Shown here: positions 5,113 through 17,956 of the stretch, one piece after another
Layout of the letters: each line of letters opens with the position of its first letter
Position numbering within the stretch: position 1 is the first letter of the stretch
NCBI RefSeq assembly: GCF_032062105.1
Contig: NW_026925150.1
Coordinates: forward strand, 128,655-192,654
Reading direction: 5' to 3'
Length of the DNA stretch: 64,000 nucleotides
Source: Saccostrea cucullata
Lineage: Eukaryota
The notes under the pieces: model-generated
Database searches by the model: none
Seen by the model: the letters and a program-made list of their open reading frames with translations, nothing else
Told to the model about the DNA's origin: nothing
Translations under genes and position numbers: made by a program

Positions 5113-7782
5113 ATGGCCAAGTTTAGTATATACCGTTTCTTCCAAATATCATGCACTTTATATGCATTGCTTGTTACATGTTCTCTGTATGGAGTTAGTT
5201 CCGACCGTGAAGACTCTGATAAATGGAAATCCTGTAATTTCAGTGAGGCAACATGTAAATGTTTGAAACTCGACGAAGGGTCCATTAAGGCAGACTGTTC
5301 TCATTTACACTTGAATCAAGTTCCAATATTTCCACATAACGTGGTCTGGATTAACCTTCAATTTAACTCGATTGAAAATATTTCCGTCAGTTATCCGAAA
5401 AACCTGTTGTATTTGGATCTTTCTCACAACAGCATTTTTTCCTTTAAAGGTGATCCTTTTGACACTATCCCAAGGCTAAAGTATTTGAATCTATCCAGTA
5501 ATAGACTAAGTCTAAATGAGAAGAATTTTTATCCAGGACTTTTTCAGCCTTTAGAATCCTTGTTAGTTTTGAACTTGAAAAACAATTCTGTAAAGATGCA
5601 ACGAAACTGGAGTTATATTGGAGAAATTCTCAGTGAATTGATTTCGTTAGAGGAACTACGATTGGATGCAGTGGGAAACTTTTTACTTACAGAAGGTTTT
5701 TACAGACTAAAGAATCTTAGTCTATTGGACATCTCCGGTTCAAGAGGACATTGTGAAACTGTAAAAATCACACACGACTTTTTTCTCAACACACCATATC
5801 TTCAATATCTAGATATATCATCTTGTAAAATCAAACATATTGAGAGAGGTGCATTCGAAATTTTAAGGAATTTAAAATCGTTGGACATTTCTTACAACAA
5901 AGAATTAGGTTTTGCTTCACTCCCAAATATAACATATAATCTAAAGAGGACGTCAATCAAAATACTTTATTTACATAATATTAATTGTTTGACGGGATTG
6001 GGAAAAAGACTGTTAATTCGCCATGTCATGAACCTGAGAAAAACCAAGTTAGAAGAGATAATCTTATCCAGAAATAGATTGGAACTGTTCGAAAGAGGCC
6101 TTGTGCGACATTTACCACCAACCCTTGAAAGGTTATCCTTGGCCGAGAACAAACTATTACAAGGTCCATACATAGCAGACTTTATTGGCTTTCATAATTT
6201 GACTATGTTTAATATGAGTCTACAGTTTCAACCACCAGAATACATGACTGCAGTCTTCGAACTTTGCAAAGAAAATCAAGATGACCTGGAGCCTTTTAAC
6301 TTCTCAATGCACAGTCATTCTACAAATTTCTCAACCTTTCTCCACAACTTTAGAAAATTCTACAGGATTGAAGTTTCTCACTGGAAACCAGTTATATTTG
6401 TACATATTCCTGAAAATCTCCAAACAATATATGTTAACGATAGTAGGCTGTATTCCAAGATATCTGCATTTGGTGTAATTGCACCGAAATTGAGGCATAT
6501 GTTCTTTCAAAATAATATATTGAATGAATGGATAGGACCAATGTACGGGATACAAAACGTTACTCGTATTGATCTCTCGAATAATTTCTGTACGAAACTG
6601 TCATCCGATTTCTTTGTTAATGCAACAGGACTTTTACATCTCAATATTTCTAGAAACTCTGTTGGAGATAATCTTGAGAGAGACATGAATGGACTTGTAT
6701 TTAGAAATTTGGTTTCGGTAGAAACATTGGACTTAAGCTCCAATAAGATTTATCATTTGCCGTATTTACTCTTGAAAAGATCTCGGAATATCAGGACATT
6801 GATTCTTAACAATAATCAACTTTCTGAGTTGAGGATCGGCGTGGGACATATGCATCACTTAGAACATCTTGATTTATCTGAAAATAGAATAGATTCTATC
6901 AGGGATGAAATCAGACAGGAACTGACTGATTTGATAAGGCTAAAAAACACGTCCATAGATCTATCTGGGAATAACGTTGACTGCTCGTGTGAAAATGTTC
7001 CATACATCCAGTGGATGGTTGAACATAAAAAAAATTTCAAAAGATTTGATGACTACGAATGTGCCATAAAAAGTCAGAAAAATTTCAATTTCAGCGATCC
7101 TGTTGTATCTCTTAAATCATTGGTAGTGGAATGCCGATCTTACACCACATTCTACATTGTTGCATCCATAGTCTTGACCATTTTAGTTTTCGTGGTCATC
7201 GCTGTGTTAGTGAAAAGAAATATTTGGACAATAAGATTTTCCATCTATCAATGTAAACAAAAAGTAAAAACAGGAGGTCGATATATGCAAATATTATATC
7301 AGAGAAACCGATTGAACTACACATATGACATATTTATTTCATATTCTGCCCGGGATCGAGAACTTGTTATGAAGAAACTTCTGTTGAAATTACAAGATTT
7401 AAACCTTGACGTCTGCATTCGTGAGAGAGACTTTTTAGCAGGTCGTCATAAAGCTGACAATATAATGGACGCGATAGAGAGCAGCAAAATGACACTTTGT
7501 GTTGTTTCGGAATCTTATCTAAAGTCAGGCTGGAGGGATTACGAACTAAACATGGCAAAACTCGAGGGTATAAAAAAGAGAGAAGGACTTCATTACGTAT
7601 ATTTAATAATTCTTCCAGGAGCCTACGATTTGAAGCGAAAATGTCCGAATTCCCTGAAGGATTTGATCAATGAAAACCTTTTTTGTCATTATCCTTCTGA
7701 GGAATCAATGGATGAACTGGATATATTTTGGAAGGACTTTTCCAGTGTTGTTGCTCATAAAATAAAAACTTTTAGCATTTAG
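5113..7782 (+). CDS. Toll-like receptor (LRR ectodomain, LRRCT, single TM, cytoplasmic TIR), single exon, paralogue A
   Basis: ORF 5092..7782 (the track start is GTG). ATG at 5113 gives signal peptide MAKFSIYRFFQISCTLYALLVTCSLYG. Many LxxLxLxxN LRRs with N-glycosylation sites, LRRCT cysteines (CSCENVPYIQWM...YECA), TM FYIVASIVLTILVFVVIAVLV, TIR box1 YDIFISYSARD and box3 FW. AATAAA at 7966. Confidence 0.9.
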   Translation: MAKFSIYRFFQISCTLYALLVTCSLYGVSSDREDSDKWKSCNFSEATCKCLKLDEGSIKADCSHLHLNQVPIFPHNVVWINLQFNSIENISVSYPKNLLYLDLSHNSIFSFKGDPFDTIPRLKYLNLSSNRLSLNEKNFYPGLFQPLESLLVLNLKNNSVKMQRNWSYIGEILSELISLEELRLDAVGNFLLTEGFYRLKNLSLLDISGSRGHCETVKITHDFFLNTPYLQYLDISSCKIKHIERGAFEILRNLKSLDISYNKELGFASLPNITYNLKRTSIKILYLHNINCLTGLGKRLLIRHVMNLRKTKLEEIILSRNRLELFERGLVRHLPPTLERLSLAENKLLQGPYIADFIGFHNLTMFNMSLQFQPPEYMTAVFELCKENQDDLEPFNFSMHSHSTNFSTFLHNFRKFYRIEVSHWKPVIFVHIPENLQTIYVNDSRLYSKISAFGVIAPKLRHMFFQNNILNEWIGPMYGIQNVTRIDLSNNFCTKLSSDFFVNATGLLHLNISRNSVGDNLERDMNGLVFRNLVSVETLDLSSNKIYHLPYLLLKRSRNIRTLILNNNQLSELRIGVGHMHHLEHLDLSENRIDSIRDEIRQELTDLIRLKNTSIDLSGNNVDCSCENVPYIQWMVEHKKNFKRFDDYECAIKSQKNFNFSDPVVSLKSLVVECRSYTTFYIVASIVLTILVFVVIAVLVKRNIWTIRFSIYQCKQKVKTGGRYMQILYQRNRLNYTYDIFISYSARDRELVMKKLLLKLQDLNLDVCIRERDFLAGRHKADNIMDAIESSKMTLCVVSESYLKSGWRDYELNMAKLEGIKKREGLHYVYLIILPGAYDLKRKCPNSLKDLINENLFCHYPSEESMDELDIFWKDFSSVVAHKIKTFSI

Positions 7783-17956: not shown

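Follow-up and report, generated by a model that had tools for sequence, protein, structure and literature searches.

The window analysed here (the whole stretch of DNA, 64,000 nucleotides) raises the question of how two Toll-like receptor (TLR) genes came to have the broken remains of a third between them, and of which gene those remains descend from. The initial annotation took the middle copy for a decaying duplicate of its downstream neighbour, TLR-B. Comparison with related oysters leads to a different answer: the locus is very probably an old Saccostrea TLR array shaped by birth and death, in which TLR-A and TLR-B are intact and the middle copy is an unprocessed pseudogene of another gene, psi-TLR-C. 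Loci of this kind are already known, oyster TLR tandem arrays with pseudogenes having been described in 2015 (PMC4346834), and the present one is an ordinary example; its importance beyond annotation is slight, as a clean and well-resolved case of birth and death in an oyster TLR array.

An ORF scan of the window found long ORFs on the + strand at 5092..7782 and 15302..17956, with first Met codons at 5113 (TLR-A, 889 aa) and 15308 (TLR-B, 882 aa), 10.2 kb apart from start to start. This bears out the initial description of two intact, intronless, same-strand TLRs about 10 kb apart, with intronless and single-exon referring to the coding regions, UTRs aside. The two proteins share 36% identity across their full length, and a search of both ORFs for the Pfam domains of a TLR was positive throughout. 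Several stretches in each match LRR_8 (E = 2.9e-35 in TLR-A and 1.1e-34 in TLR-B), with at least 13 LRR motifs in TLR-A and at least 13 in TLR-B in a motif scan for the LxxLxLxxNxL core, and the TIR/TIR_2 matches over both genes range from E = 1e-11 to 1e-14 (TIR_2 2e-14 and TIR 5.6e-13 in TLR-A; TIR_2 2e-13 in TLR-B). The TIR domain of TLR-A (residues 741-889) is complete and aligns to residues 3-143 of the 149 in the human TLR2 TIR structure 1fyw; that of TLR-B, also complete, aligns to residues 10-152 of the 162 in the human TLR1 TIR structure 7nuw. Both carry FISY as box 1 and FW as box 3, and the proline of box 2 (the BB-loop) is replaced by Ala in TLR-A and by Ile in TLR-B. In some vertebrate TLRs this proline is important for signalling through MyD88, so the adaptor usage of the two receptors is uncertain.

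Table 1. Features of the TLR array and its surroundings, in window coordinates.
Feature	Position	Strand	Description
YtcJ-like amidohydrolase	1753..3765	-	intronless; Amidohydro_3 9.4e-76; bounds the TLR array upstream
TLR-A	5113..7782	+	intact TLR gene with one coding exon, 889 aa
~310-bp dispersed repeat, copy 1	8151..8463	+	about 370 bp 3′ of TLR-A
(CGTCGTTGTCGT)n microsatellite	11215-11251		12-nt unit, left of the 166-bp array
166-bp tandem array	11418..12784	.	about 8.5 monomers, 1.4 kb, in the TLR-A-to-psi spacer
psi-TLR-C surviving upstream flank	13089..13303	+	215 bp; former promoter-distal region; ends at the deletion 1 junction
psi-TLR-C LRR remnant	13304..14331	+	homologous to TLR-C codons 244-584 (mid-LRR)
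psi-TLR-C TIR tail	14332..14492	+	homologous to TLR-C codons 827-878 and the stop position
Surviving TLR-C 3′ flank	14493..14534	+	within block 14328-14534
~310-bp dispersed repeat, copy 2	14541..14850	+	about 38% of the short spacer before TLR-B
TLR-B	15308..17956	+	intact TLR gene with one coding exon, 882 aa

Each protein has a single strong internal hydrophobic segment (Kyte-Doolittle; 676-709 in TLR-A and 652-681 in TLR-B) containing a predicted transmembrane (TM) helix at about 680-703 and 654-676, respectively, between ectodomain and TIR. A signal peptide is predicted at 3-21 in TLR-B, where hydrophobicity exceeds the Kyte-Doolittle threshold, and in TLR-A it is judged by inspection from the hydrophobic N terminus (FFQISCTLYALLVTCSLYGVSS). 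Cysteine clusters are found at the N terminus of both proteins (C41/48/50/62 in TLR-A) and beside the membrane, where an LRRCT-like CxC...C...C arrangement (C624/626/650/674 in TLR-A and C599/601/625/648 in TLR-B) is called by motif only, the Pfam LRRCT and LRRNT models giving no match at E = 0.01 in either protein. A scan of cysteine positions found no comparable internal cluster (an LRRCT-LRRNT pair) in TLR-A or TLR-B. Domain content and predicted topology confirm both as Toll-like receptors, of the putative single-cysteine-cluster, type I membrane kind.

The closest proteins to the window TLRs are Saccostrea TLRs, with best matches at 93–94% aa identity in S. cucullata and 77–83% in S. echinata. 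TLR-A is 83% (aa) and 86% (nt) identical to its S. echinata orthologue, and TLR-B is 94% identical in aa to S. cucullata P0001 and 77% (aa) and 83.5% (nt) identical to its S. echinata orthologue. Against S. echinata, dS, dN and omega are 0.43, 0.085 and 0.20 for TLR-A, and 0.48, 0.117 and 0.25 for TLR-B, values that, together with a domain-by-domain calculation, place both genes under purifying selection. The two may accordingly be called working genes in the sense of ORF integrity, complete domains and an omega well below 1. Relatives of these genes are annotated as “toll-like receptor 4” (P0121 and P0003 in S. echinata). Orthology to vertebrate TLR4 was rejected, the best solved-structure TIR matches being TLR1, TLR2, TLR6, TLR10 and TLR15, with TLR4 absent from the TIR structure matches of both proteins at E ≤ 0.001; the label is an automatic naming convention and not a statement of orthology.

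With TLR-A and TLR-B masked, tblastn found colinear TLR fragments only at 13302..14477 (E = 1e-10 to 1e-14), running in shifting frames (3/1/2/3) with stops. The best match scored 61.6 bits with TLR-B as the query and 44.3 bits with TLR-A; none of 400 shuffles of protein or DNA scored above 24.6 bits. The sequence at 13304..14492 is a real TLR pseudogene. A pseudogene between the two TLRs had thus been recognized correctly in the initial annotation, but its limits (13262..14460) are replaced by those of the coding remnant and the upstream flank in Table 1. No other TLR match at E < 1 was present in the 64 kb in this masked search, which was run to E = 10; the array therefore ends at TLR-B for at least 46 kb, and the first 243 codons missing from the pseudogene have not moved elsewhere in the window.

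The parentage of the pseudogene emerges from the orthologous array of S. echinata (GCA_033153115.1, JAVQLB010000003.1, about 3.44–3.47 Mb), in which the neighbours (a major vault protein gene and a YtcJ-like amidohydrolase gene), the strand and the order are all the same. The amidohydrolase, 91% identical in aa, occupies the same position and strand 5′ of TLR-A (L003 6614..8515). S. echinata differs in having an intact TLR-C (P0003, an ORF of 878 uninterrupted codons) and, between C and B, an additional B-like copy, D; the window has a dead C and lacks D. The S. cucullata member, P0007, covers C codons 166-727; every protein model of S. cucullata is either incomplete or scrambled, and the absent TIR of P0007 is not readable as a real truncation.

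At the DNA level, where S. echinata is the one outgroup genome and S. cucullata enters through partial protein models only, the pseudogene lies within TLR-C sequence on both sides. Window positions 13089-13303 correspond to S. echinata L001 9676-9892 (73%, blastn), 325 to 109 bp 5′ of the TLR-C start codon; the body (13302-14331) corresponds to L001 10721-11754 at 75.4% nt identity; and the tail with its 3′ flank (14328-14534) corresponds to L001 12473-12679 at 85%, including an ungapped 200-nt block (12477-12676). The conceptual translation is 66–68% identical to the C orthologues of the two other species, compared with 49% to window TLR-B and 32% to TLR-A, and the TIR tail alone is 75% identical in aa to P0003 and 62% to window TLR-B. 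In bootstrap analysis the C clade (window pseudogene, S. cucullata and S. echinata) was recovered at 100% and the pairing of the pseudogene with S. cucullata C at 98%. Read together, these comparisons make the middle copy orthologous by position to TLR-C, a third and old paralogue that survives here as a putative unprocessed pseudogene.

The initial identification of the middle copy as a TLR-B derivative, that is, a recent tandem duplicate from a lineage-specific expansion that is now decaying, has in its favour that within the window the pseudogene is closer to TLR-B than to TLR-A and lies just 0.8 kb upstream of it. It does not withstand the cross-species evidence: the grouping of the pseudogene with window TLR-B received 0% bootstrap support, both flanks match those of S. 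echinata TLR-C and not those of TLR-B, and C and B differ by a dS of about 1.7 (saturated), roughly four times the value of about 0.45 for the Saccostrea species split, which places the B/C divergence, on synonymous distances, long before that split. Barring misassembly of the S. echinata TLR-C region, flank synteny, dS and the tree refute a recent TLR-B duplicate, and we regard this origin as highly improbable. The lesson is that a pseudogene adjoining a paralogue need not descend from that paralogue; the death of a third, old gene is visible here only through cross-species synteny.

Alignment to S. echinata TLR-C also resolves the anatomy of psi-TLR-C. Deletion 1 (about 830 bp as measured on S. 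echinata, junction 13303/13310) removed the proximal promoter (the promoter-proximal 108 bp), the ATG and codons 1-243, and deletion 2 (722 bp, junction 14331|14332) removed codons 585-826, spanning the LRRCT (592-641), the TM (646-668), the juxtamembrane region and TIR boxes 1-2. Two details of the anatomy first proposed are wrong: the LRRCT, said to be kept, lies within deletion 2, and the ectodomain, said to be mostly lost, is about half kept in the LRR remnant. At the junction of deletion 2, 3–4 bases are shared (GTC[T/C]), which at 20–25% divergence from the sole reference is uninformative on mechanism, and a search for microhomology at the junction of deletion 1 gave nothing meaningful. 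What remains carries at least 13 frameshifting indels (lengths not divisible by 3) and two nonsense substitutions (CAA>TAA at 14152 and TGG>TGA at 14451), and its longest ORF is 69 aa, without a signal peptide. The three codon positions have all diverged at close to the neutral rate (0.18/0.15/0.23), omega is 0.49 against 0.20 for TLR-A and 0.25 for TLR-B, and the terminal branch is about sevenfold longer (0.362) than those of intact C genes (0.05–0.06), a pattern that indicates relaxed selective constraint.

These lesions bear on whether the damage is fixed and old. Bivalve TLRs vary in presence and absence (PMC10279657), and the short branch of S. cucullata P0007 (0.05) makes C look constrained in a very close relative, so the pseudogene might be a null allele or presence/absence variant of one haplotype, or its deletions might be assembly collapses. 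We consider this quite unlikely: besides the deletions there are the frameshifts, the nonsense substitutions and the long branch, which mean long neutral decay and cannot come from faulty assembly, and while an allele as old as psi-TLR-C could still segregate, that is the less likely case. A new role for the remnant, for example as a non-coding RNA or as a short LRR peptide secreted as a decoy and expressed from the retained flank, would fit the survival of 215 bp of the original upstream sequence and the better conservation of the TIR-tail block (85%) than of the LRR remnant (75%). The block is, however, short (207 nt), runs into the 3′ flank and is within noise; deletion 1 took the sequence nearest the promoter together with the start codon; no signal peptide precedes the longest ORF; all three codon positions diverge at near-neutral rates; and there is no Rfam match. 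Such a function is very unlikely.

The repeated DNA around the pseudogene suggests one further origin. The spacers, initially described as TE-rich, are indeed about 40% repeated DNA, mainly the 166-bp array, with the ~310-bp dispersed repeat as the other component, but transposon proteins are missing from them: all spacer ORFs are at most 104 aa, none matches a transposon protein family, and the six searched with Pfam had no match at all. Among the 88 ORFs of at least 70 aa in the rest of the window there was a single weak Pfam match (zf-C17orf113, E = 2e-4), and no tRNA or Rfam matches pointed to tRNA-derived SINEs. The 166-bp array, seen in self-blastn and by TRF (period 166, 6.6 copies, 89% matches), has monomers 79–82% identical to the C. 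gigas CL1 monomers (PMC7492417, supplementary file 2; shuffled maximum 54%), by which it belongs to a Cg170/HindIII satellite-like family; related arrays lie at 33039-33736 and 37793-38186. In oysters, arrays of this family are carried by Helentron non-autonomous elements (Cg_HINE; PMC7492417), and the present one resembles Cg_HINE in consisting of a short run of 166-bp monomers dispersed in gene-adjacent DNA. The comparison covered the monomers; of the features that make up the left and right Helentron flanking modules (sub-terminal inverted repeats, stem-loop and microsatellite), a microsatellite on the left side is what was seen here. The two copies of the ~310-bp repeat are 77% (blastn) or 82% (MAFFT) identical to each other and are absent from the orthologous S. 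echinata site; the repeat is unclassified, and a search for terminal inverted repeats found none.

Helitron/Helentron elements can capture gene fragments (PMC7492417), and the retained flank begins about 300 bp beyond the end of the Cg170-type array, so that the pseudogene could be imagined as a TLR piece captured by a neighbouring element, or as a processed (retrotransposed) copy. Either origin is extremely improbable. The pseudogene is orthologous in position, in orientation and in the non-coding sequence that flanks it on either side, it has no poly(A) tail, and the 166-bp array is absent from the orthologous S. echinata site and is therefore an independent insertion.

The descent of psi-TLR-C from an old tandem paralogue can be placed in a wider history. 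Ostrea edulis has an array at OX387706.1, about 58.01–58.03 Mb (P0123, P0004 and P0002), in which an orthologue of A (58–64% aa) is followed on the same strand by B/C-type copies. The A clade (window, S. echinata and O. edulis) has 100% bootstrap support. The two B/C-type copies of O. edulis differ from those of Saccostrea in being 84% identical and grouping together (100% bootstrap), either by independent duplication or by gene conversion, and their placement relative to Saccostrea B or C has a bootstrap of just 47%. With the exception of this pair, each paralogue clusters with its counterparts in other species and not with the other paralogues of its own species. Since the A lineage has its own Ostrea orthologue and dS between B and C is so high, the array is an old one that is now losing members differentially. 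The tandem array and birth-and-death evolution initially proposed for a lophotrochozoan, here an oyster of the genus Saccostrea, therefore stand, while the proposed fresh lineage-specific expansion does not, given the B/C distance relative to the species split.

The damaged member is not the same in any two of the three oysters compared, which supports birth-and-death evolution of the array, with different oysters appearing to keep, truncate or lose different members. O. edulis has a copy that a single stop cuts short at codon 691, together with a fragment comprising TM and TIR. In S. echinata it is copy D, which has an internal deletion and 2 stops (psi-D). Copy D groups with B (bootstrap 98–100%), and its dS values (0.48 for window B and S. 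echinata B, 0.52 for S. echinata B and D, and 0.66 for window B and S. echinata D) are such that neither a gain there nor a loss here fits cleanly.

The very probable course of events begins with the ancestral order amidohydrolase(-), TLR-A(+), TLR-C(+), possibly TLR-D(+) and TLR-B(+), in which TLR-C would have been born by tandem duplication from a B/C ancestor long before the Saccostrea species diverged. In the window lineage, one deletion would then have taken the start of TLR-C with its proximal promoter and a second its LRRCT, TM and most of its TIR, and the rest would have drifted neutrally, gathering frameshifts and stop codons. From its excess divergence, psi-TLR-C may have been dead for about 40–55% of the interval since its lineage parted from S. 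echinata; the estimate is rough, and codon alignments around indels inflate divergence. For the surviving TLR-A and TLR-B, family membership alone suggests ligand-induced dimerization, with a microbial ligand recognized by the LRR ectodomain and MyD88-type adaptors recruited by the TIR. It is unlikely that the loss of TLR-C is recent, lineage-specific and possibly still polymorphic, such that together with the differing fate of copy D it gives closely related Saccostrea species, or even individuals, different pathogen-recognition repertoires drawn from a common ancestral array; were this true, it would provide a natural knockout with which susceptibility to disease could be tied to a particular oyster TLR. 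The two deletion junctions offer markers for TLR-C presence/absence variation in Saccostrea populations.

Among other bivalves, C. gigas has 57 of its 83 TLRs in tandem arrays, with nine frameshifted pseudogenes and eight TLRs on scaffold 599 (Zhang et al. 2015, PMC4346834), and its clusters resemble the present one: single-exon TLRs lie in arrays on one strand, the paralogues are divergent, and a pseudogene occurs among them now and then. No 1:1 orthologues of TLR-A, B or C were retrieved from Crassostrea/Magallana, where the best matches were at 40–41% aa; judged by the retrieved matches, the array seems confined to the Saccostrea and Ostrea side of the oysters. Mussels (Mytilus) show species-specific TLR tandem duplications at conserved positions, with presence/absence variation (Saco et al. 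2023, PMC10279657). As in the oyster array, orthologous positions are kept between species while the copy numbers of paralogues differ; the Mytilus work, in contrast, stresses recent species-specific gains and positive selection, whereas the oyster array consists of old paralogues with visible losses.

For annotation, TLR-A can be entered as an intact receptor of the A subfamily and TLR-B as one of the B/C subfamily. Two S. echinata gene models also look improvable, namely TLR-C, which contains a spurious intron, and TLR-B, of which the TIR alone is annotated.

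Analysis of the window revealed only three open reading frames of at least 150 aa, all listed in the table, two of which encode the Toll-like receptors TLR-A and TLR-B. Both proteins match Pfam LRR_8 (E ~1e-35) and TIR/TIR_2 (E 1e-11 to 1e-14), as the initial annotation had anticipated, and share 36% identity over their full length. Both have a hydrophobic N terminus and an N-terminal Cys cluster, LRR core motifs number at least 13 in each, and a single CxC...C...C cluster lies next to the membrane, with one strong transmembrane (TM) segment; no internal cysteine cluster is present in either. 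Their TIR domains can be aligned over the whole length with the human TLR2 and TLR1 TIR structures. This arrangement identifies TLR-A and TLR-B, at the level of predicted protein, as complete single-cysteine-cluster Toll-like receptors. In box 2 of the TIR domain, which reads RDFxPG in human TLR1 and TLR2, the BB-loop proline is replaced by Ala in TLR-A (RDFLAGR, ~7426–7446) and by Ile in TLR-B (IHFEIGN, ~17600–17625), with the RD dipeptide also missing from TLR-B, and adaptor usage may consequently be non-canonical.

Coordinates of features in the window, with blastn matches to L001, a S. echinata TLR locus sequence (GCA_033153115.1, JAVQLB010000003.1)
Feature	Window	Strand	L001	Details
YtcJ-like amidohydrolase	1753–3765	−		intronless ORF, 670 aa; Pfam Amidohydro_3, E 9e-76
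TLR-A	5113–7782	+		889 aa, from first Met of ORF 5092–7782
TLR-A match	5135–7941		13–2818	86% identity
~310-bp dispersed repeat, copy 1	8151–8463			unclassified; shortly downstream of TLR-A
Broader repeated zone	11192–12806			around 166-bp array
Microsatellite	11215–11251			beside 166-bp array
Tandem array, 166-bp monomers	11418–12784			TLR-A-to-pseudogene spacer
Non-coding, upstream of TLR-C	13089–13303		9676–9892	73% identity
Pseudogene deletion 1, junction	13303/13310			~830 bp; proximal upstream region, ATG, and codons 1–243 lost
TLR-C interior	13302–14331		10721–11754	75.4% identity
Nonsense substitution	14152			CAA>TAA
Pseudogene deletion 2, junction	14331/14332			722 bp; codons 585–826 lost
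TLR-C C terminus and 3' flank	14328–14534		12473–12679	85% identity
Nonsense substitution	14451			TGG>TGA
~310-bp dispersed repeat, copy 2	14541–14850			unclassified; shortly downstream of pseudogene
TLR-B match	15281–17352		20569–22637	83.5% identity
TLR-B	15308–17956	+		882 aa, from first Met of ORF 15302–17956
Related 166-bp-monomer array	33039–33736			
Related 166-bp-monomer array	37793–38186			

The best matches of both receptors are oyster proteins automatically named "toll-like receptor 4", with amino acid identities for TLR-A and TLR-B, respectively, of 93 and 94% in Saccostrea cucullata, 83 and 77% in S. echinata, 58 and 55–57% in Ostrea edulis, and ~40% for both in Crassostrea/Magallana. 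Comparison with S. echinata (Nei-Gojobori) gave dS 0.43, dN 0.085, and ω 0.20 for TLR-A and dS 0.48, dN 0.117, and ω 0.25 for TLR-B, and both genes are thus under purifying selection; the TIR and TM regions are the most constrained (ω 0.07–0.17). In the same comparison, one ectodomain patch in each receptor rises above a background dN/dS of 0.1–0.25, to ~0.55 at TLR-A codons 101–250 (5413–5862) and ~0.4 at TLR-B codons 301–450 (16208–16657). These patches are candidate ligand-contact surfaces under relaxed or diversifying selection.

With TLR-A and TLR-B masked, a tblastn search returned colinear TLR fragments at 13302–14477 only; these shift frame and contain stops (E 1e-10 to 1e-14), and nothing else in the 64-kb window did better than E ~6. 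The best HSPs of these fragments scored 61.6 bits (with TLR-B) and 44.3 bits (with TLR-A), compared with a maximum of 24.6 bits in 400 protein/DNA shuffles, the control that the initial annotation had called for. The tandem cluster with a pseudogene in the middle described in the initial annotation is therefore real, as judged by ORFs, Pfam, tblastn, and shuffles, but its boundaries and anatomy required correction.

The parentage of the middle copy, which had been read as a decaying TLR-B, also had to be revised. When the fragment was compared with 25 homologues, the top scores went not to the neighboring TLR-B but to P0003 of S. echinata and P0007 of S. cucullata, the representatives in those species of a third paralogue, TLR-C. 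The S. echinata array runs in the order major vault protein (−), amidohydrolase (−), TLR-A (+), TLR-C/P0003 (+), a damaged B-like copy D (+), and TLR-B (+), and the blastn matches between L001 and the window, which extend into the flanks on both sides of TLR-C, indicate that the pseudogene (psi) is the orthologue of S. echinata TLR-C. A conceptual translation stitched along the TLR-C frame is 66–68% identical to TLR-C of S. echinata and S. cucullata, as compared with 49% to TLR-B and 32% to TLR-A of the window. In neighbor-joining trees (500 bootstraps), psi and the two TLR-C proteins form a clade with 100% support, within which psi pairs with S. cucullata TLR-C (98%); the TLR-A clade, Ostrea included, is recovered at 100% and TLR-B plus D at 98–100%. 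Descent of psi from TLR-B is ruled out by the flank synteny with L001 and by a bootstrap of 0% for psi plus TLR-B of the window.

TLR-C is intact in S. echinata, where its 878 codons translate without interruption. Only codons 244–584 and 827–878 survive in psi, with the rest removed by two deletions resolved by base-level alignment, and the remaining sequence carries at least 13 indels of a length not divisible by three and two nonsense substitutions. The LRRCT (codons 592–641), which psi had been thought to keep, lies inside deletion 2, together with the TM segment (646–668) and TIR boxes 1 and 2. The public model of S. echinata TLR-C is 793 aa with an intron (11743–11981), although the 878-codon frame is open (L001 10001–12637); likewise, the reading frame of the S. 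echinata TLR-B orthologue stays open over 680 codons or more (L001 20590–22637), yet its sole annotated product is a 245-aa TIR protein.

The terminal branch of psi measures 0.362 versus 0.05–0.06 for the intact TLR-C genes, and the psi/TLR-C pair gave dS 0.37, dN 0.18, and ω 0.49, an intermediate value that would be expected if one of the two lineages had spent part of the time under neutral drift. Assuming ω of ~0.2 while functional and 1 afterward, TLR-C is roughly estimated to have been dead for ~40–55% of the time since the S. echinata split, placing its death, again as a rough estimate, at about the time of the S. cucullata split or somewhat earlier. The duplications themselves are older than had been supposed: TLR-C versus TLR-B of the window gave dS ~1.7 (saturated), dN 0.261, and ω 0.153, a dS far above that of the TLR-A and TLR-B species pairs. 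On these rates, the B/C duplication is much older than the divergence of the Saccostrea species.

The proposal of a lophotrochozoan tandem TLR array under birth-and-death evolution held up, as a different member is damaged in each of the three oysters compared. In the window this is psi-TLR-C. In S. echinata, the B-like D (L001 13954–15895) has an internal deletion of ~700 bp (B codons ~228–464) and two premature stops, and is a second TLR pseudogene independent of psi-TLR-C. D has no counterpart in the window, where the psi-to-TLR-B gap is only 0.8 kb, and pairwise dS values of 0.48 (TLR-B of the window versus that of S. echinata), 0.52 (S. echinata TLR-B versus D), and 0.66 (TLR-B of the window versus D) fit neither a gain in S. 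echinata nor a loss in the window decisively. In the O. edulis array (L002, OX387706.1), a B/C-type copy (3213–5861) has a full-length frame of 883 codons interrupted once, by a premature stop at codon 691 just before the TIR domain, and its annotated 690-aa product consequently lacks TM and TIR; this copy could be on its way to becoming a pseudogene or could encode a secreted decoy. A separate TM and TIR fragment (L002 15739–16386) also has an in-frame stop. Published work on bivalve TLRs describes this pattern: of the 83 TLRs of C. gigas, 57 lie in tandem arrays and nine are frameshifted pseudogenes (PMC4346834), and in mussels tandem copy number varies at conserved positions, with presence/absence variation (PMC10279657). 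In S. glomerata, TIR-domain genes number 182 (PMC6289776). The locus is thus a further instance of a well documented kind, with relatives already annotated in sister species, and would not surprise a specialist.

Repeated DNA makes up ~40% of each spacer, by array and dispersed-repeat measures. Monomers of the spacer array are 79–82% identical to C. gigas CL1 monomers (shuffled maximum 54%), and all three 166-bp arrays fall at 75–83%. CL1 belongs to the Cg170/HindIII family, carried by Helentron non-autonomous elements (PMC7492417 and its supplementary file 2), and the three short arrays in the window indicate that this satellite-like family is dispersed in Saccostrea euchromatin as well. Both copies of the ~310-bp repeat are missing at the orthologous S. 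echinata sites, and a search for terminal inverted repeats on this element found none. The spacers contain no ORF longer than 104 aa, no Pfam match, and no tRNA or Rfam match. The earlier description of the spacers as "TE-rich" is an overstatement; "repeat-rich, with non-autonomous elements" describes them accurately.

The stretch that follows TLR-B (46 kb, 18000–64000) contains neither an ORF of 150 aa or more nor a tRNA or Rfam match. Outside the three genes, 88 ORFs of 70 aa or longer, most of them in this region, yielded one weak Pfam match, to zf-C17orf113 (E 2e-4). The region is either gene-poor or holds short-exon genes only. At the other end of the window, the amidohydrolase has a signal-peptide-like N terminus and sits in a stretch whose GC content (0.405) exceeds the 0.30–0.34 around it. 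A literature search on such an amidohydrolase gave nothing relevant. The protein shares 91% identity with its syntenic S. echinata counterpart and is about equally close to mussel and clam proteins (47–54%) and to many bacterial proteins (45–51%; Anaerolineales, Sulfidibacter, and Kiloniella), which suggests an ancient bacterial acquisition retained across bivalves.
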